Assembly (NCBI GenBank): GCA_964622645.1 | Contig: CAZUSV010000004.1 | Location: 9,290-73,289, forward strand | Reading direction: 5' to 3' | Length of the DNA: 64,000 nucleotides | Origin: an uncultured Anaerolineales bacterium | Lineage (GTDB): Bacteria > Chloroflexota > Anaerolineae > Anaerolineales > UBA11858 | Part shown: one piece after another, positions 48,766 to 57,286 of the stretch | How the letters are laid out: every line of letters begins with the position of its first letter | Numbering within the stretch: position 1 is the first letter of the stretch | The notes under the pieces: generated by a model | The model's input: only the letters and a program-made list of their open reading frames with translations | Told to the model about the DNA's origin: nothing | Database searches by the model: none | Translations under genes and position numbers: made by a program

Positions 48766-49596
48766 ATGAAACGCAATCATATTCTCATTGAGGCAGACGA
48801 ATTGCTAACAAAAATAAATAATCCAAATATACGTATATTTGATGCTACGATTATGTTCTACATTGGCCTTAGCCCAGAGGAAATCGCTAAGATGCCGACG
48901 GCCCATGAGCAATATCTGGCGGGTCATATTCCCGGCGCGGTATTTTTTGACCACCTGAAATTTTCTGACACCAGTAGCCCTTATGAGTACATGCTAGCCA
49001 CTGATGAGCAACTGGCTGACCAGATTGGCAAAATTGGCATCGCCAATGATTCGGAAGTCATTGTGTACACCACCGCCATTTTGGCCTGCGCCACACGTGC
49101 CTGGTGGCTGCTGCGCTATGCAGGTCTGGAAAATGTGCGTGTGCTAAATGGTGGTTTCGCTGCCTGGAAAAAAGTGGGAGGCGCCGTGGAACAGGAGGAG
49201 CAAAAATATGCAGCTACGCAATTTGAGGAACATTTCAAACCGGAGATGTTTGCCAGCAAGGAAGAAGTACAGGCTGCGATAGACATGGACGGTGTGTATA
49301 CCGAGAATGCCCTGACGCAGGATTGGCACGACCAGGAACATATTCCCGGTTCTAGCTGCTTACCGCTCACGGATCTGACAATTGAATGGGATGCCTTTTT
49401 ATCAGAGGATCAGTTGTCCGCCCGCTTGAACGGTGTAGGCCAGCACAAGCGCATCATCACCTATTGTGGTGGCGGGATTGCCGCGACATTGAACGCAATT
49501 GCACATTTGATGGTTGGCAATGAAAATGTGGCCGTGTATGATGGTTCTTTGTTTGAATGGAAGGGTGAAGGGCTGCCTGTGGTAAGCAAAGAATAA
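48766..49596 (+). CDS. Tandem-rhodanese sulfurtransferase (thiosulfate/3-mercaptopyruvate type)
   Basis: Two rhodanese domains. Active-site loop YCGGGIAA in the second. Confidence 0.88.
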   Translation: MKRNHILIEADELLTKINNPNIRIFDATIMFYIGLSPEEIAKMPTAHEQYLAGHIPGAVFFDHLKFSDTSSPYEYMLATDEQLADQIGKIGIANDSEVIVYTTAILACATRAWWLLRYAGLENVRVLNGGFAAWKKVGGAVEQEEQKYAATQFEEHFKPEMFASKEEVQAAIDMDGVYTENALTQDWHDQEHIPGSSCLPLTDLTIEWDAFLSEDQLSARLNGVGQHKRIITYCGGGIAATLNAIAHLMVGNENVAVYDGSLFEWKGEGLPVVSKE

Positions 49597-49641
49597 CTGA
49601 GTTTTTCACAAGTGACCCATGGTTGATTTGTTCGGGGGGAT

Positions 49642-51228
49642 TTATCCGAAGGGATAGGGGTTGGGTAATTCAACTTCCAGCACGAAACCCTCACCAGAAG
49701 ATGATCTGATTTGCATACGACCGTCCAATAGGGCCACTCGCTCACTGATACCAACCAGACCAAAATGATGGTTTGCAGAGAGGTCTGCCAGATCAGGTAA
49801 TATTTCAATGCCATATCCATCATCCACAAAACGGATCAATAGGTGACCCTCGGGTGAATGCGTCAGTGTCAATTGCACCTCATTTGCATTGGCATGCTTG
49901 GCAACATTGCCAAGACCCTCTTGAATAATCCTAAATATTGAGAGTTCCATCAGTTCTGGCAGGCGTCCCAACGTTTGATCGATTTCTATTTTTGTCGTAA
50001 CTCCGCTTCGCTCCTCCCATTCTTGTACCAGAGAGGGAATTGCAGAAGAAAGTCCGTGGTTGTCGATTGTTGGAGGGCGCAGGTCACGGCATAATTGGCG
50101 CAAATCGCTTACAACCTGGCGAATTGCCTCACGGATTTCATGCAACTCGTGACGTTGTTCATCGGAGTTTTCATCACTCTCTACATCTTCCAGCCGGTAA
50201 TTTACTCCGAGCAAATCCTGTATCACTGAATCGTGTAACTCACGCGCCAGGGCTTTGCGTTCTTCTTCTCTATCGGTCATCAAGCGCCTCTGTGTTTCCT
50301 GCAGAGCTGCATTTAAGCGATCCATGGCTTTGACCTGCTTGCTTAACTTTTCGATTAGCTGTCGGTTAAGCAAGTCGCTGGCTTCTAGCGTCTCATGCAG
50401 TTGAGCCTGTTCCCGAAAGAGTTCTTCAGTGTGTTGTTGGGCTTTGTGGAAGCTTTCCAGTGCCCACATGACGGGTGTGACCTGTTCCTGGTTACTGGCA
50501 CCCACAATTAATTCTACAACTTCACGGGGAGTGAAATCAGACGTATATCGGTCTGCTACTAATCGACCTTCATATAACACCAGGATACGGTCGGTGATAT
50601 TGAACAGATGCTTCAGATTATCACTACAAACAACCACTCCCAAACCCTGTTGAGCTTGTTCGCGGACCCGCTCAAGTAAGATTTCCTGGCGATAGTAACT
50701 GAGATTGGATAAGATATCATCTAAGAGCAATAGACGAGGTGGTTGACAGAATGCTCGCATTAAGGCAATCAAATAACGTTGTTCGTTGGTTAAGTTTGCA
50801 ATCGGCTCATAAATTAAGTTTTCAGGTAAACCGAAGTTTGCCAGTAAATCTCTAGCCCTCTCATACATCAGTATCCAATTTTGTAGTCCGAGCAAAGGGA
50901 ATTTTATTATCTCGTGACCCAAGAAAATGTTTTGGATAACATTGAGCTGATCAATAACTTGAGATGGCTGGTAGACTAGTTCAACCCCCTCTTGGCGAGC
51001 ATGTGAGGAAGATACAAAATGTGTAGGTTGCTCTTTCAAAAAAAAGGTCCCCTGAGAAGGCTGAGTGGCACCCCCGATCAGGTGTAATAAAGTAGATTTT
51101 CCTGCGCCACGCCGACCGACCAAACCAAGAATTTCGCCTCGTTGCAATTCGAAGGTGATATTGTCCAGCACCTTTAGATTACCATAAGATTTGGTTAGTG
51201 ATTGAACACGTAACAAAGAATCAGACAT
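49642..51228 (-). CDS. Fusion protein: degenerate ABC nucleotide-binding domain + coiled coil + HisKA_3 + HATPase_c histidine kinase (soluble)
   Basis: The N-terminal ~245 aa are ABC-ATPase-like (GRRGAGKST, ELVYQ, NIFLGHE). The signature is LTNEQ, Walker B is LLLLDD-I, and there is no H-loop His. The C-terminal part has H-box ERKALARELHDSVIQ, N-box EGLGNVAKHA, DDGYGI and GLVGISER. No TM helix. Confidence 0.85.
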   Translation of the reverse strand: MSDSLLRVQSLTKSYGNLKVLDNITFELQRGEILGLVGRRGAGKSTLLHLIGGATQPSQGTFFLKEQPTHFVSSSHARQEGVELVYQPSQVIDQLNVIQNIFLGHEIIKFPLLGLQNWILMYERARDLLANFGLPENLIYEPIANLTNEQRYLIALMRAFCQPPRLLLLDDILSNLSYYRQEILLERVREQAQQGLGVVVCSDNLKHLFNITDRILVLYEGRLVADRYTSDFTPREVVELIVGASNQEQVTPVMWALESFHKAQQHTEELFREQAQLHETLEASDLLNRQLIEKLSKQVKAMDRLNAALQETQRRLMTDREEERKALARELHDSVIQDLLGVNYRLEDVESDENSDEQRHELHEIREAIRQVVSDLRQLCRDLRPPTIDNHGLSSAIPSLVQEWEERSGVTTKIEIDQTLGRLPELMELSIFRIIQEGLGNVAKHANANEVQLTLTHSPEGHLLIRFVDDGYGIEILPDLADLSANHHFGLVGISERVALLDGRMQIRSSSGEGFVLEVELPNPYPFG

Positions 51229-51308
51229 ACGATTTCATCACTTACTATCCTCACGAGATGATATTCTATTTTACCGCGCGATATTCCCAAAATGCATTCT
51301 ACTATTGC

Positions 51309-51334
51309 GGGCCTCTAGGAATTCCCGTGTTAAT
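51309..51334. repeat. Family A repeat, solo arm, between the permease and the NBD-kinase gene
   Basis: gggcctctaggaattcccgtgttaat. Overlaps the permease stop codon. Confidence 0.55.
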
Positions 51335-52514
51335 TTCCTGTTTTACGAGTAGTCACATCAAAGATAACCGCGGCTGCAAGTACAATCGCTCTTACAATGT
51401 ATTGATAGGATATGTCAATCCCCATTAAATTCATGCCACTCGTAAGCGATGTCATGACCAAGGCACCAATGAGCGAGCCAATCACAGTGCCTACACCACC
51501 CGCTGCAGATACACCACCGACAAAAGCTGCAGCGATAGCATCCAGTTCGAACAAGGTTCCTGCAGTGGTAGTGGCGGATTGTAGTCGGGCTGCAAATAGC
51601 ATTCCTGAAAGAGCGGCCAGCATTCCCATCGATCCAAATACAATATGCGTTATTCGCTTGACACTAATACCGCTTAATTCAGCTGCCTCAGGATTCCCAC
51701 CGACGGCGTAAATGTGTCTGCCCAGGACTGTCTTGGTGGTGATGAAATTATAGAGAATAGCCACAATTAATACAACCACTGCAGTCCATGAAAGGCCCTG
51801 GTATCCGGCTAATATCCAGGCAACCCAGCCAATTAGAGCTGAGATGAGCACCAGTCTGAGGACGAACATGCCGTTTGACATAACCTCAATTTGGTTTTTT
51901 TTCATTCTGCTACGGCTGATCAATTCACTCGATGCGAACAAAATAATGCCTAGCAATCCAAGGATCAAAGTGAATTTATGCAGATCAGGAAATATCTCAA
52001 TATTTGGAATATCTGAAATAAACCCATTTCCAATTGCATTGAATGCATCGTTTGGGATGACGATTGTGCCAGTAGCACGGGTGGAGAGTTGCAAGGCTCC
52101 CCTGTAACCTAACCAGCCTGCCAGGGTGGCGACGAAGGCTGGAATCCCTAGATTAGCCACTAAGAAGGATGTAAATAAACCGGCGATTATGCCCAAACCC
52201 AGAACAAGCGGTATTACCAGATAAACTGGCAGATTCCAGTTTACCATGGCGATCGCTGCCACAGCTCCAAGGAAACCGGCTAAAAAGCCAACTGATAAGT
52301 CAATATGCCGGATGATAATCACCAGGGTCATACCGACCGCCAAAACGGCAATATATCCGGTCTGGTTGACCAGATTAACCAGATTTCTTGATGAAAGGAA
52401 TAGTCCGTCCGTAGTAATAGTAAAGACTCCCATGATTACGAATAAGGCGATGAACATGCCGTAATCACGGATGTTTTCACGGAACAATTTGCGCATCTCA
52501 TTGAAAAGTGTCAT
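51330..52514 (-). CDS. CUT2 sugar ABC transporter permease (XylH-like, 394 aa)
   Basis: Polytopic BPD_transp_2-type permease. Its size and sequence are similar to xylose/ribose-type permeases. Confidence 0.9.
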   Translation of the reverse strand: MTLFNEMRKLFRENIRDYGMFIALFVIMGVFTITTDGLFLSSRNLVNLVNQTGYIAVLAVGMTLVIIIRHIDLSVGFLAGFLGAVAAIAMVNWNLPVYLVIPLVLGLGIIAGLFTSFLVANLGIPAFVATLAGWLGYRGALQLSTRATGTIVIPNDAFNAIGNGFISDIPNIEIFPDLHKFTLILGLLGIILFASSELISRSRMKKNQIEVMSNGMFVLRLVLISALIGWVAWILAGYQGLSWTAVVVLIVAILYNFITTKTVLGRHIYAVGGNPEAAELSGISVKRITHIVFGSMGMLAALSGMLFAARLQSATTTAGTLFELDAIAAAFVGGVSAAGGVGTVIGSLIGALVMTSLTSGMNLMGIDISYQYIVRAIVLAAAVIFDVTTRKTGN

Positions 52515-52531
52515 TTCGAGCCTCCTCGCGC

Positions 52532-53329
52532 CTATCCAGCAACCTGTACTTCTCTGAAGTCGTCTCTAGCGCCTATCATGTAGGCTACCACCCTTTCACG
52601 GAACTCGTTTATATCGCCTTCTACAGCGGTATCGCAGACTTTGCGTCCTTGGCGGAGTACGATCATTCGGTCACTGACTCGGTAGATATCTTCCAGGCGA
52701 TGACTTATGATGATGATTGATGCGCCTTGCGCTTTGAGCTCCTTTACTAATTCAAGTACCTGGTCAATCGCTGCTACGCTCAAAGCCGCTGTGGGTTCGT
52801 CCATGATGATCACTTTGGCGTTGAACGCTGTCGCGCGCGCGATGGCGATTGCCTGGCGCTGACCACCAGAGAGTCTTTCTACGATTTGGCGAACAGATTG
52901 GATGTTGATTCTAAGGCGATTTAGCAGACTTACAGTTTCCTGCTCCATGTGACGAAAATCCAAGACCCCAATTGGACCCAATTTCATTTGAACCACTTCT
53001 CGTCCCATGAAAACATTCGCCGCAACGTCTAGATTGTTGGCCAGGGCATAATCCTGATAAACCATCTCAATTCCCTGGCGACGCGCATCCATAGGATTGG
53101 TAATGTATGCCTTCTCCCCCTCCAGGAGAATATCTCCGTCGTCAGGGATATACGCTCCGCTGAGCACCTTCATGAGAGTGGATTTTCCAGCAGCGTTGTC
53201 TCCGACTAACCCCAACACTTCATTTTGTTGTAAAGCCAGGTCTACCCCACGTAATGCCTGGACAGCGCCAAAGTTCTTTTTGATGTTTCGCATTTCAACG
53301 ACTGGCGTGTTTTCTGGTGTAGATGGCAT
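52532..53329 (-). CDS. CUT2-type sugar ABC transporter ATP-binding protein, single NBD (265 aa)
   Basis: Intact motifs: [39 protein letters not shown]. Confidence 0.92.
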
Positions 53330-53370
53330 GGGTACATCCTTTTGCTAGTTATAAATGCAAGTCTAATTAG

Positions 53371-53483
53371 TTCGACAATGTCACATTCGCGAGAACTTCC
53401 GAAAATAGGGGGTGGCAGGGGTGCTGAGCACCCCTGCCACCCCCTATTTTCGGGCTTCTCGTCTGTAATTTGACATTGTCAAG
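53371..53483. repeat. Family B repeat, full copy, inside the SBP-ATPase intercistronic gap
   Basis: ttcgacaatgtcacattcgcgagaacttccgaaaatagggggtggcaggggtgctgagcacccctgccaccccctattttcgggcttctcg..tgacattgtcaag. Confidence 0.85.
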
Positions 53484-53585
53484 TTAGAAATTCATAATTC
53501 GTTAGTGCGAGAAATTTTCCTGAATTATAAAGGAATAGTGATGGATAATCCATCACTATTCCTTTTGATGAGTAAAACTCTTTAT

Positions 53586-55802
53586 TTATCCGTCCAATCC
53601 GGTGAACTCACTGGCATCCCAGTATCCAGAGTCAATGATTGCTTCCTGGACGTTGTCCTGGTCAACCGAGATCACTTCAGAAGGTTTGGCGGGGACATCG
53701 ATTACGCCATTGTTGTAGGTGTTGGTTTCGGGAGGTGCGCCGCCTTCGAGATAAGCAACGGCAGCGGCGATGGCATCACCAACCAGTGTGCGGACATCCT
53801 TCAGGACGGTCATGGACTGCTTGCCGTCAATGATGTACTGCACGGAAGCGATCTCAGCGTCCTGACCGGTGACCACGTAGCTGGCAACATCCGCATCGGC
53901 GCCAAAGGCATCGGCAATAGCGCGAGCGGTGCCGTCATTGGGCGCCAGGATGAACACATCGCCCTTGTCGTCAGCGCCGGCAGCAGTCAGATGAGATTCT
54001 GCCAGGGTCTTGGCGGTGTCGAAATCCCATTCGGTGGTGACCTGGCCGATGATCTGGCCCATCTCTTCACGGGTCAGTTCAGCCTTGTCCTGCAGGGTAA
54101 CCGCTTCGCTGGAGTTGACGACGTAGAAGGTGCCGTCAGCGATCTTGGGCTGCAGCACATTCCAGGCGCCTTCGAAGAACAGGAAAGCGTTGTTGTCAGA
54201 TGCCGCTCCGGCATACAGGTAGAGCGGGTTGCCAGACCCGGAGGCTTTGTCGACCAGGTATTGAGCCTGGGCAGCGCCAACAGCGATGCTATCGAAGGTG
54301 ACGTAGTAGTCCACTGCCTCGGTATCGCGGATCAGACGGTCGTAGGAGACCACTTTCACACCAGCCGAGCGGGCGGCTTCTGCAGCTGCGGCTGCGGCGG
54401 TACCGTCATGCGGGGTGATGATGATAACTTCGACGCCCTTGGTGATCAGGTTTTCGACGTTGGTCCTTTCTTTAGCGGAATCCCCTTCGCTGAAGAGGAT
54501 CTCGACCTCATAGCCAGCTTCGGCGAAAGCGTCTTTGAAGCGGGTCTCATCCTGGATCCAGCGAGGTTCTTCCCTGGTCGGTAAAACAATGCCAACTGTA
54601 CCAGACACTTCCGGAGCCATGCCCATCTCATCCAATCCGGTGAATTCACTGGCATCCCAGTATCCAGAGTCGATGATCGCTTCCTGGACGTTGTCCTGGT
54701 CAACCGAGATCACTTCAGAAGGTTTGGCGGGGACATCGATTACGCCATTGTTGTAGGTGTTGGTTTCGGGAGGTGCGCCGCCTTCGAGATAAGCAACGGC
54801 AGCGGCGATGGCATCACCAACCAGTGTGCGGACATCCTTCAGGACGGTCATGGACTGCTTGCCGTCAATGATGTACTGCACGGAAGCGATCTCAGCGTCC
54901 TGACCGGTGACCACGTAGCTGGCAACATCCGCATCGGCGCCAAAGGCATCGGCAATAGCGCGAGCGGTGCCGTCATTGGGCGCCAGGATGAACACATCGC
55001 CCTTGTCGTCAGCGCCGGCAGCAGTCAGATGAGATTCTGCCAGGGTCTTGGCGGTGTCGAAATCCCATTCGGTGGTGACCTGGCCGATGATCTGGCCCAT
55101 CTCTTCACGGGTCAGTTCAGCCTTGTCCTGCAGGGTAACCGCTTCGCTGGAGTTGACGACGTAGAAGGTGCCGTCAGCGATCTTGGGCTGCAGCACATTC
55201 CAGGCGCCTTCGAAGAACAGGAAAGCGTTGTTGTCAGATGCCGCTCCGGCATACAGGTAGAGCGGGTTGCCAGACCCGGAGGCTTTGTCGACCAGGTATT
55301 GAGCCTGGGCAGCGCCAACAGCGATGCTATCGAAGGTGACGTAGTAGTCCACTGCCTCGGTATCGCGGATCAGACGGTCGTAGGAGACCACTTTCACACC
55401 AGCCGAGCGGGCGGCTTCTGCAGCTGCGGCTGCGGCGGTACCGTCATGCGGGGTGATGATGATAACTTCGACGCCCTTGGTGATCAGGTTTTCGACATTT
55501 GTCTTTTCCTTGGCTGAGTCGCCCTCGCTGAAGAGGATCTCGACCTCATAGCCAGCTTCAGCGAAAGCGTCTTTGAAGCGGGTCTCATCCTGGATCCAGC
55601 GCGGTTCTTCCCTGGTCGGCAGAACAACACCAACGGTACCTGCCATCACAGCGGGTTCCTCTTCTGGAGCTGCTTCTTCTGGAGCTGCCTCTTCTAGGGC
55701 TGCCTCTTCTGGGGCTTGCGGCTGGCAAGCTGTGAGGACTAATCCGACCAGTACAACCAGCGAAACCAGCCATAAAACCGAACGTAAATTTTTCTTAGAC
55801 AT
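53586..55802 (-). CDS. Lipoprotein with two tandem XylF-like (D-xylose/ChvE-type) periplasmic sugar-binding domains
   Basis: Start at ATG 55802 after SD aaggaga. Signal peptide with lipobox LTAC and an (E/A/P)-rich linker. Two ~346-aa copies resemble XylF (REEPRWIQDE.., YDRLI, NNGVIDVP). Confidence 0.85.
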   Translation of the reverse strand: MSKKNLRSVLWLVSLVVLVGLVLTACQPQAPEEAALEEAAPEEAAPEEEPAVMAGTVGVVLPTREEPRWIQDETRFKDAFAEAGYEVEILFSEGDSAKEKTNVENLITKGVEVIIITPHDGTAAAAAAEAARSAGVKVVSYDRLIRDTEAVDYYVTFDSIAVGAAQAQYLVDKASGSGNPLYLYAGAASDNNAFLFFEGAWNVLQPKIADGTFYVVNSSEAVTLQDKAELTREEMGQIIGQVTTEWDFDTAKTLAESHLTAAGADDKGDVFILAPNDGTARAIADAFGADADVASYVVTGQDAEIASVQYIIDGKQSMTVLKDVRTLVGDAIAAAVAYLEGGAPPETNTYNNGVIDVPAKPSEVISVDQDNVQEAIIDSGYWDASEFTGLDEMGMAPEVSGTVGIVLPTREEPRWIQDETRFKDAFAEAGYEVEILFSEGDSAKERTNVENLITKGVEVIIITPHDGTAAAAAAEAARSAGVKVVSYDRLIRDTEAVDYYVTFDSIAVGAAQAQYLVDKASGSGNPLYLYAGAASDNNAFLFFEGAWNVLQPKIADGTFYVVNSSEAVTLQDKAELTREEMGQIIGQVTTEWDFDTAKTLAESHLTAAGADDKGDVFILAPNDGTARAIADAFGADADVASYVVTGQDAEIASVQYIIDGKQSMTVLKDVRTLVGDAIAAAVAYLEGGAPPETNTYNNGVIDVPAKPSEVISVDQDNVQEAIIDSGYWDASEFTGLDG
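53593..55638. repeat. In-frame tandem duplication, 2 x 1038 bp, within the binding-protein gene
   Basis: Offset is exactly 1038 bp. The central ~0.8 kb (53641-54458 vs 54679-55496) appears identical on spot checks. The flanks carry many mostly synonymous differences. Confidence 0.9.
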
Positions 55803-56095
55803 ATTCTTCTCCTTGAAATGCTTTATTTGAATCAAAATAGTACTGAATATTCAATTATCAGTTAAGTTATCTGGGGAACAGCACCTCCTCAATATTAGTT
55901 CTTAATGAATTCAAACTGTGAAGGGCAGGTGTGGTATCTGGTAGTAATTGTCAAAGCACACCAGATCCAATCAAACCGATTTTCATCGGTTTCTGAAACG
56001 GTAGGCAATTTTATCAAGTGTTGGGACCGGGCTCCCCCTCTTTTCCCCCCAATGATTTAGGGGATTTCCCCTAAAAATTATCCAAAGGTGAATTG

Positions 56096-56202
56096 TCTCT
56101 CTCGGAATCGCCGGGGCAGCTCCCAGATGGGGGGGGGTGGAGCGTGCTCTGCACACCCCACACCCCCAAATCTGGACATTACCATGGAATTCCTAGAGAC
56201 CC
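56096..56202. repeat. Family A repeat, full variant, in the divergent promoter region
   Basis: gtctctctcggaatcgccggggcagctcccagatgggggggggtggagcgtgctctgcacaccccacacccccaaatctggacattaccatggaattcctagagaccc. Confidence 0.8.
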
Positions 56203-56242
56203 TTATTTCAGTCCTGTAATATAGTGGTAAGATTAGATCGCT

Positions 56243-57286
56243 ATGGAAAAATCACGCATTTTGCTGGCGGATGATCACGAAGTTGTCCGGGCAGGCATTC
56301 AAAAAGTTGTTGAAGATGCCCAAAATTTACAGATTGTTGGCGAGGTAGAAGATGGGATATCGCTGCTGGAGAGCCTGGAACTAACCCGCCCAGAGTGTTT
56401 ACTAGTTGATATCAGCATGCCAGCGTTTGATCCACTGAAAACTATCCCAGAAATTCGTGCTAGATACCCAAAATTAAAGATCCTGGTCGTCAGTGCCTAT
56501 GACGATGATGTATACGTTCATGGCATGTTAGAAGCTGGAGTCGATGGATATCATCTCAAAGACCAACCACTCAGTGACCTGAAATTGGCTATCCAACGTG
56601 TGCTGAACGGTGAGCGTTGGATTTCAAGTTCTTTGATCTCGAAACTAGTAGACAAACCCAAGCCATCCGCTGAGACACCAATCCTGACCTCCAGGCAAAT
56701 CGAAATTCTCCGTTTGCTTCGAGATGGTTTAGATAATAACGGCATTGCTTTGGAGATGAATCTAAGTGTCAAGACGATCGAAAACCATCTAACCCGGATT
56801 TATAAACAGCTTGGTGTACGCAGTCGATTAGAAGCTAGCAACTATGTAAATCAGCATCCTGAAATATTGGGAATCAAGGGGTATCGTGTTATTCAGCAAC
56901 GAAAAAATTTAAACCGACCATATGGTGTTTCAATCCTGCTTGTCGATGATAATCGCCGCTATTTACAACAGCTTCAGCGCATTTTAGGCAAAGTGGTTCC
57001 CCGGGCTGGCTTATACGAAGCAAACGACCTGAATGAGGCAGTTTATATTGCCAAGAATGTACAACCTCAACTTGTTTTGGTTGATGTTGTACTTGGTGAA
57101 GAAGATGGCATTCGCTGTGCGCGTCGAATCAAGGCTGTATCTGGACAATCGCGTATCGTAATGATAAGTGCATACCCAGACCGCGAATTTCATCGATTAA
57201 GCATTGAAGCTGGAGCAGTTGCCTTTCTGGATAAAAAGGATCTGGATGCATCCGCGATACAGCAAGTGGTGGAAGATCTGCTTTGA
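56243..57286 (+). CDS. NarL/LuxR-family response regulator with an extra C-terminal receiver (REC-HTH_LuxR-REC)
   Basis: REC1: LLADDH, LLVDISMP, VVSAY, HLKD. HTH: LTSRQIEILRLL..SVKTIENHLTRIYKQLGV. REC2: LLVDDN, LVLVDVVL, MISAY, FLDKK. Confidence 0.88.
   Translation: MEKSRILLADDHEVVRAGIQKVVEDAQNLQIVGEVEDGISLLESLELTRPECLLVDISMPAFDPLKTIPEIRARYPKLKILVVSAYDDDVYVHGMLEAGVDGYHLKDQPLSDLKLAIQRVLNGERWISSSLISKLVDKPKPSAETPILTSRQIEILRLLRDGLDNNGIALEMNLSVKTIENHLTRIYKQLGVRSRLEASNYVNQHPEILGIKGYRVIQQRKNLNRPYGVSILLVDDNRRYLQQLQRILGKVVPRAGLYEANDLNEAVYIAKNVQPQLVLVDVVLGEEDGIRCARRIKAVSGQSRIVMISAYPDREFHRLSIEAGAVAFLDKKDLDASAIQQVVEDLL

Follow-up and report, generated by a model that had tools for sequence, protein, structure and literature searches.

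A soluble Chloroflexota histidine kinase with a conserved, catalytically degenerate sugar-importer ATPase domain as its only candidate sensor

The stretch of DNA analysed here (the window) comprises 64,000 nucleotides of contig CAZUSV010000004.1 from an uncultured Anaerolineales bacterium, whose assembly holds 6.04 Mb in 365 contigs. Four co-directional genes of the window encode a binding lipoprotein, a half-size ATPase, a permease and, after a gap of 101 nt, a protein in which an ATP-binding cassette (ABC) nucleotide-binding domain (NBD) is fused to a histidine kinase. The fusion protein belongs to a conserved and undescribed Chloroflexota family, a soluble kinase with a disabled sugar-importer ATPase domain as its only candidate sensor. 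The database names of the family are generic only ("ATP-binding cassette domain-containing protein" or "histidine kinase"). A literature search, with most subscription journals outside its coverage, found no publication on a fusion of an ABC NBD to a histidine kinase. The features are listed in Table 1.

Table 1. Coordinates and annotation of the fusion gene, its motifs, the neighbouring genes and the related loci (window positions unless a locus is named; aa, amino acids; L, locus).
Feature	Position or locus	Strand	Annotation
NBD-histidine kinase fusion gene	49642..51228	-	open frame, 528 aa, soluble; Pfam ABC_tran + HisKA_3 + HATPase_c
Degenerate ABC NBD (aa 1-245)	50494..51228	-	Pfam ABC_tran E=1.7e-22, AlphaFold2, Foldseek
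Walker A GRRGAGKST, intact	51091..51117	-	residues 38-46
Q-loop ELVYQ	50968..50982	-	residues 83-87; CUT2-type NIFLGxE segment follows
Variant signature LTNEQRY	50773..50793	-	residues 146-152; E149 at second Gly of LSGGQ
Walker B LLLLDDIL	50710..50733	-	residues 166-173; D171 at catalytic Glu position
H-loop position CSDNL	50614..50628	-	residues 201-205; D203 at His position
Helical linker (aa 246-320)	50269..50493	-	AlphaFold2 helices; conserved across family
HisKA_3 dimerisation/phosphoacceptor domain	50071..50262	-	Pfam E=1.9e-13, 51.2 bits (cut-off 24)
Phosphoacceptor H332	50233-50235	-	conserved in at least 95% of 131 members; invariant in 66-sequence alignment
HATPase_c, N/G1/G2 boxes intact	49660..49944	-	Pfam E=2.4e-9, 38 bits (cut-off 26.4)
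GguB-like CUT2 permease	51330..52514	-	Pfam BPD_transp_2; NCBIfam GguB 1.5e-116
Canonical half-size CUT2 ATPase, 265 aa	52532..53329	-	all motifs canonical
Tandem-duplicated ChvE/XylF-like sugar-binding lipoprotein	53586..55835	-	Peripla_BP_4 twice; NCBIfam ChvE 4e-157
REC-HTH(LuxR)-REC response regulator	56243..57286	+	Pfam; divergent from operon; receivers flank HTH
Two-NBD ATPase (complete, 504-519 aa) in CUT2 operon	L035, L037, L040, L041, L042, L050, L051, L052, L053/L054, L057
Half-size ATPase in CUT2 operon	window, L055, L056, L038, L044
Kinase unlinked	L036/L043 (kinase); L049 (regulator + half-size-ATPase operon)		about 465 kb apart
Extra permease (336-361 aa) + binding protein (332-341 aa)	L037 7159-9191; L040 7043-9098; L041 5736-7850

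Pfam placed ABC_tran at residues 21-171 of the fusion protein, HisKA_3 at residues 323-386 and HATPase_c at residues 429-523. No transmembrane (TM) segment was found in the protein, and its top Kyte-Doolittle window of 19 residues scored 1.21. The NBD belongs to the ABC NBD fold, with an ABC_tran (PF00005) score of 80.9 bits against a cut-off of 25. Residues 1-245 had a pLDDT (predicted local distance difference test) of 80-93 in the AlphaFold2 model, which was built with 66 homologues. Foldseek matched this part to CbiO, MalK, PotA, LptB and PhnK (E about 1e-18), and the TM-scores (template modelling) to CbiO, LptB and MalK were 0.75-0.88. Two long helices come next in the model (residues 247-280 and 287-352), predicted with low pLDDT in the monomer, and the kinase core follows with its dimerisation and histidine phosphotransfer (DHp) and catalytic and ATP-binding (CA) parts. 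Conservation was measured over 131 aligned family members with a threshold of at least 95%, and a separate alignment held 66 sequences. Linker residues above this threshold recur at a spacing of 3-4, N288 among them, and the linker is likely a dimeric coiled coil.

The kinase core carries the H-box His and the N, G1 and G2 boxes of HisKA_3 kinases (NarX/DegS/LiaS type). H332, N441, D469, G471, G473 and G490 are each conserved in at least 95% of the 131 members, which indicates a working kinase that needs an input. Besides the kinase core, the NBD is the only domain of the protein. The first-pass annotation of the window had proposed a sensor module rather than a motor, and this is reasonable for the one input module of a kinase that is itself intact. 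A candidate paralogue in the same genome (contig C313, matching residues 252-518) was rejected, being an unrelated multi-TM HisKA_3 kinase that matches in the coiled coil and kinase core only. A scan of the genome contigs with the single fusion protein returned unrelated kinases and ATPases only.

The five motifs that the first-pass annotation had assigned to the kinase-fused NBD were confirmed by translation, and 50494-51228 corresponds exactly to residues 1-245. The HMMER alignment to ABCB4 places E149 at the second Gly of LSGGQ, D171 at the catalytic Glu and D203 at the H-loop His. The same equivalences were obtained in a MAFFT alignment with canonical CUT2 NBDs. Compared with a competent ATPase, the domain therefore has the Walker A consensus GxxGxGK[ST] and lacks LSGGQ, the catalytic Glu and the H-loop His. 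The motifs given earlier for the neighbouring ATPase (GDNAAGKST, MVYQ, LSGGQRQ and ISHRL) were also correct, apart from a trivial difference in Walker B, which reads VIIMDEPT and not IIIMDEPT.

The close homologues of the fusion protein were the best 120 matches among 5.8 billion clustered proteins, with identities of 53-100%. Their source labels were Chloroflexi, Anaerolineae or Anaerolineales, and all showed the same three-domain architecture except one N-terminally truncated entry. Residues were counted in 118 full-length close homologues (53-79% identity to the window protein). The Walker A glycines G38, G41 and G43 were present in 118/118 and K44 in 116/118, and Q87 of the Q-loop was kept in 107/118. 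The signature Glu at position 149 was found in 118/118. D170 of Walker B was kept in 117/118, and position 171 was Asp in 111, Glu in 5 and Asn in 2. The H-loop position 203 was Asp in 75, Glu in 30, Asn in 12 and Thr in 1, with no His in any of the 118. At least 95% of the 131 members also have N100, G104 and E106, residues that agree with the consensus of canonical CUT2 NBDs.

These counts bear on whether the degeneracy is strain-specific decay, as in an incipient pseudogene or an annotation artefact. The degenerate motifs themselves would fit decay, and nothing further does. The frame is open, the degenerate residues are common to more than 120 clusters at 53-79% identity, and the gene occurs in 23 of 301 sampled Chloroflexota genomes. 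The alignment with CUT2 NBDs and homologous fusions, by which the first-pass annotation had wished to distinguish conserved degeneracy from decay, gave homologues without the LSGGQ/DE/H set. Motif loss shared by the homologues indicates that it is ancestral and under selection. Decay is refuted by this conservation, and the chance that we assign to it is practically nil.

The family extends beyond the close homologues. The Chloroflexota sample of 301 genomes covered 172 genera, and the full-length relatives (42-57% identity) in the 23 genomes came from 9 genera with six family codes. These distant members always have LSxEQRQ as their signature, with SSxNLxHLF at the H-loop. Often their Walker B is intact (LLILDEA, VVIIDEPT, LVILDEPT), and many Chloroflexia members keep the catalytic Glu. 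The earlier statement that the domain has lost all catalytic motifs thus holds for the window protein and fails for the family as a whole; only some lineages, that of the window included, have lost the catalytic Glu. Walker A, DE and His were combined in no family member examined.

A sister branch was collected with a search seeded by P0127, a representative of 35% identity, which gave 120 further clusters. The signature Glu was present in 119/120 of these clusters and in 10/10 genome loci. The Glu at the second signature Gly is the sole universal hallmark of the family. All 120 clusters retain the NLDxLF segment, the linker and the kinase. Walker A is another matter, as 68/120 clusters have no canonical GxxGxGK[ST] (for example DHEGQAILE, DREGLGILE and ERVGSGVST), and in these the Q-loop Gln is mostly gone too. 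The claim that the NBD keeps its ATP-binding motifs is accordingly right for the close homologues and wrong for more than half of the sister branch. ATP binding is not an essential property of the family, and the motifs suggest that it has been kept in the clade of the window and is dispensable for the family. Because the branch without Walker A keeps the NBD fold motifs, linker, kinase and synteny, the conserved role appears to be structural and not nucleotide sensing.

The invariant Walker A of the window's clade could nevertheless be read in another way. The protein would then be a sensor of free cytosolic ATP/ADP (energy charge), independent of the transporter, which tunes the sugar-uptake genes. 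Without the catalytic Glu and the H-loop His, nucleotide binding could be long-lived, and soluble NBDs away from membranes exist, such as PhnK on C-P lyase, one of the fold matches. This reading has to face the 68 sister-branch clusters that lost the canonical Walker A while keeping architecture and synteny. We regard it as quite improbable.

The position of the defects was compared with that in known asymmetric ABC proteins. In heterodimeric ABC proteins the defects of the two NBDs meet in one site, and a signature that departs from the consensus impedes closure (PMC5216877). The same rule holds for the full-length CUT2 ATPases of the related loci. Their NBD1 has the signature LGVGKQQ, and their NBD2 has the Walker A GLMGAGRTE and an ISSE H-loop without His. 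The catalytic side of NBD1 and the LSGGNQQ signature of NBD2 form a consensus site, and the defects converge on the other site. The fused NBD resembles a degenerate half in that Walker A is kept with a non-canonical Glu and His. It differs in that its own signature (LTNEQ) is non-consensus and the signature of its neighbour is the canonical LSGGQRQ. The first-pass comparison with the degenerate-site half of asymmetric ABC proteins therefore does not apply, the fused NBD having lost its own Glu and His and also its own signature. Since both the cis elements (Glu, His) and the trans element (signature) are missing, pairing with the canonical neighbour would cripple both sites. The defects coincide only when the fused NBD pairs with itself, which fits an obligately dimeric kinase.

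A carboxylate at the second signature Gly is known from CFTR G551D/G551E. There it repels the gamma-phosphate of ATP, the two NBDs are believed not to dimerise, and ATP acts at the site as an inhibitor (PMC4178940, PMC2151620). By this analogy, closure of the fused NBDs glued by ATP is unlikely. The first-pass idea of a nucleotide- or dimerisation-dependent module is weakened to this extent, ATP-driven dimerisation being improbable with an invariant signature Glu. Canonical CUT2 NBDs have Glu or Asp at position 39, and the fused NBDs have mostly Arg, His or Gln there. A cross-dimer salt bridge between R39 and E149 is a weak idea; the position also varies to Ser, Asn, Gly and Thr, which counts against it.

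A maximum-likelihood tree of 74 NBDs was calculated with SH-aLRT support (Shimodaira-Hasegawa-like approximate likelihood ratio test). All degenerate fused NBDs formed one clade (SH-aLRT 100), which is sister to the half-size CUT2 ATPases (SH-aLRT 90), the window's own ATPase among them. The two groups together are sister to NBD1 of the full-length CUT2 ATPases, and NBD2 forms a distant clade. The best NCBIfam matches of the NBD were to NBD1 of CUT2 ATPases, far below the cut-offs (148 vs 850), which indicates a derived offshoot of CUT2 (TC 3.A.1.2) and not an equivalog. On the tree, the fused NBD descends from half-size CUT2 sugar ATPases. The possibility that it serves as NBD2 of a split CUT2 ATPase was rejected, as it clusters with the half-size ATPases and NBD1 and most loci have a complete ATPase.

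Other fusions were found in the same tree and searches. P0145, P0141, P0142 and P0220 are HisKA_3 kinase fusions with largely canonical motifs, including both DE and His in P0145 and P0141. One to three PAS domains lie between NBD and kinase in P0141, P0142 and P0220. Their placement within the NBD1 clade shows that NBD-kinase fusion arose more than once. A metagenomic protein (P0137, 680 aa) joins a full two-NBD CUT2 ATPase to an IclR C-terminal ligand-binding domain. In another metagenomic protein (P0130), the NBD and linker of the family (50% identity, residues 2-312) are fused to a MalT-type tetratricopeptide repeat region and a LuxR helix-turn-helix (HTH), which indicates that NBD and linker are a portable input module. 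P0130 looks like a one-component version of this module and recalls MalK-MalT, but in covalent form.

At an overall identity of 50-60%, the regional identity was 52% for the NBD, 65% for the linker, 68% for DHp and 57% for CA. The lower conservation of the NBD than of linker and DHp, together with the dispensable Walker A in a large branch, would be expected if the NBD were a structural or dimerisation scaffold only and the kinase were controlled elsewhere, by the second receiver of the regulator or by another partner. Against this, about 30 NBD positions, the family-specific Glu149 included, are conserved in at least 95% of the 131 members, and the NBD and linker are reused with another output in P0130. 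A mere scaffold would also leave the strict transporter synteny described below unexplained, and we find this explanation very doubtful.

The genomic context was surveyed in 17 loci carrying a family member, the window included. The family kinase accompanies a CUT2 operon of binding protein, ATPase and permease together with a regulator of the REC-HTH-REC type (REC, receiver); the sole exception is the unlinked arrangement. A homologue of the window regulator (47-83% identity) adjoins the operon in 14 other loci, and exactly one such regulator was found in each of the four genomes tested. This regulator is presumed to be the cognate partner of the NBD-kinase. The window permease is 66-84% identical to the permeases of 13 related loci. 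A sensor of free ATP/ADP would have no reason to stay with a single sugar operon across all genomes, and it would give the dedicated two-component pair no sugar specificity. The family probably reads the neighbouring sugar transporter directly.

The binding lipoprotein of the window (749 aa) contains two ChvE/XylF-like units in frame. The corresponding protein has 726 aa in L055, and L050 has a protein of 540 aa and a 176-aa fragment. As the duplication is also present in these relatives, it is a lineage trait and not an assembly artefact. Two antisense open reading frames (53505-54584 and 55029-55517, both on the + strand) lie over the binding-protein gene; they are mutual repeats derived from the duplicated DNA and are probably not genes. 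In a promoter and terminator scan of 49300-56400, the counts were at or below shuffle expectation.

The type of motor ATPase differs among the loci. The window ATPase shares 51% identity with its half-size counterparts in L038 and L044, which belong to a different operon class. Its identity to NBD1 of full-length ATPases is 35-38%, with 35% for NBD1 of L050 and L051. The binding protein and permease of the window are of the kind that other loci combine with a two-NBD ATPase of 506 aa. Between the window lineage (window, L055, L056) and L050/L051, the identities were 67-84% for the permease, 76-87% for the binding protein, 64-83% for the regulator and 58-79% for the kinase. This comparison of sequences implies that the motor ATPase was replaced by the half-size type in the window lineage and that the operon is a mosaic. 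The kinase remained orthologous through the motor swap, so it is not tied to any one motor. At least 10 loci encode a complete two-NBD ATPase, which makes the fused NBD supernumerary and not a missing transporter half. L037, L040 and L041 have an extra BPD_transp_2 permease and Peripla_BP_4 binding protein directly upstream of the fusion, without an ATPase of their own, so that in effect the kinase supplies the only NBD of this transporter set.

It has also to be considered that the fused NBD is a stoichiometric transporter subunit, which would heterodimerise with the half-size ATPase on the permease as NBD1 does with NBD2 in full-length CUT2 ATPases, with the kinase built in. The window, L055 and L056 have only the half-size ATPase and the fusion, the fused NBD is sister to the half-size ATPases, and the fusion gene is the last of the operon. 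In such a heterodimer, however, the sole canonical catalytic site would meet a degenerate signature, and the site without Glu and His would meet the canonical one, so that both would be crippled. In sister lineages the orthologous kinase goes with a complete two-NBD ATPase, and a kinase homodimer brings two NBDs per complex. We judge the subunit explanation improbable.

We favour instead a reading in which the pseudo-ATPase docks on the permease and relays the state of the transporter to the kinase, and we believe it about as readily as we doubt it. A half-size CUT2 importer ATPase would have been duplicated, would have lost its motor function and would have been fused through a coiled coil to a HisKA_3 kinase. 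The kinase homodimer would present two fused NBDs, which in a fraction of the complexes would occupy the cytoplasmic coupling surface of the CUT2 permease dimer instead of the motor. Docking of the sugar-loaded binding protein would shift the permease conformation and alter the spacing or orientation of the two NBDs. The change would pass through the coiled coil to the DHp helices and set kinase against phosphatase activity towards the REC-HTH-REC regulator, which would in turn control the sugar operon. ATP may still sit in Walker A, but with the invariant signature Glu in place and the catalytic Glu and His gone, neither a productive sandwich nor hydrolysis would be expected. The complex would thus signal without transport or ATP consumption.

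The Q-loop region in ABC proteins generally faces the membrane domain. In the fused NBD, the Q-loop/NIFLGxE region is still canonical and CUT2-like while the catalytic residues are not, which supports docking. The kinase needs a sugar-specific input, and the only candidate is an NBD unable to be a motor, which also favours docking.

Several points weigh against this mechanism. Anatomy, conserved degeneracy, half-size origin, synteny and the intact kinase are observed, whereas the docking of NBD on permease, the homodimer geometry, the sign of the response and the role of bound nucleotide in members with Walker A are deduced. A full two-NBD ATPase normally fills both coupling sites of the permease, so that competition or a separate sub-population of complexes is needed. 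The NBD-kinase diverges faster (35-79% identity) than the type-A permease (66-84%) of the same loci, contrary to the naive expectation for a tight co-evolving contact. The subclades of fused NBDs do not cleanly follow the permease type: kinases of subclade I occur with type-B permeases, with the extra permease and, in the branch without Walker A, with type-A permeases only, and no clean co-phylogeny is seen. Walker A is strictly conserved among the close homologues of the window protein, which implies that nucleotide matters there, in a way that the docking model leaves unspecified.

One possible but unlikely elaboration concerns the signature Glu. It may be a stand-in for, or an antagonist of, the ATP gamma-phosphate, so that the sugar-loaded binding protein would drive closure of the two fused NBDs on the permease and ATP would counteract it, and a complete importer would have been turned into a receptor. 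If this were true, the output would join the external sugar with the internal nucleotide state in members with Walker A, and it would be fully nucleotide-independent in the branch without Walker A.

If docking is correct, the state of an ABC importer reaches a two-component system by covalent capture of the ATPase domain of the transporter, with no accessory protein or membrane-embedded kinase. The family also offers a natural series of disabled NBDs, from the signature Gly-to-Glu change to loss of the His, of the catalytic Glu and of Walker A. Such a series could separate the features needed for mechanical coupling to the membrane domain from those of ATP chemistry. The cultured Phototrophicus methaneseepsis (CP062983.1) carries a member of the sister branch, which makes the family testable in a cultured organism.

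The family would be a form of transporter-coupled two-component sensing, a kind of sensing that is already known. In function, BceS-BceAB, the transporter-fused kinase Ks-Amt5, MalK-MalT and PstB-PhoU-PhoR come closest to it, and in structure the half-size CUT2 ATPases do. In MalK-MalT and PstB-PhoU-PhoR, the state of an importer NBD is relayed to a transcription regulator or a kinase through non-covalent contacts, and the NBD is a working motor. The CUT2 half-size and NBD1 ATPases (TC 3.A.1.2: RbsA, XylG, GguA, YtfR) have the same fold, gave the best matches and share the Q-loop/NIFLGRE segment. Compared with them, the fused NBD has a Gly-to-Glu signature, no H-loop His and, in the window's clade, Asp for the catalytic Glu, and it is fused to a kinase and additional to a complete motor. 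TM287/288, CFTR site 1, TAP and SUR are alike in having an intact Walker A with non-canonical Glu and His, where ATP could bind without turnover. Their defects are split over two NBDs with a consensus site left, whereas here both defects lie on one NBD. CFTR G551D/G551E likewise has an acidic residue at the second LSGGQ Gly; there it is a pathogenic channel mutation, and here it is an invariant, selected family trait with a predicted effect.

The BceS-BceAB system of Firmicutes also has a kinase without a sensory domain of its own, which relies on the cognate ABC transporter and regulates its operon (PMC8534201, PMC3023708). BceS is a separate two-TM kinase contacting BceB of an exporter-type system, whereas the kinase here is soluble and fused to an importer-family NBD. 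With a soluble kinase and a BPD_transp_2/GguB-like permease, the locus is not a Bce-type module, which combines an intramembrane-sensing two-TM kinase with a BceB permease that has a large extracellular domain, and the resemblance is functional only. In Ks-Amt5, a transporter part without efficient transport is the sensor of a fused kinase (PMC8534201). There the fused part is a membrane channel that binds the ligand, whereas here the kinase is joined to the cytoplasmic ATPase domain alone and would sense the ligand indirectly.

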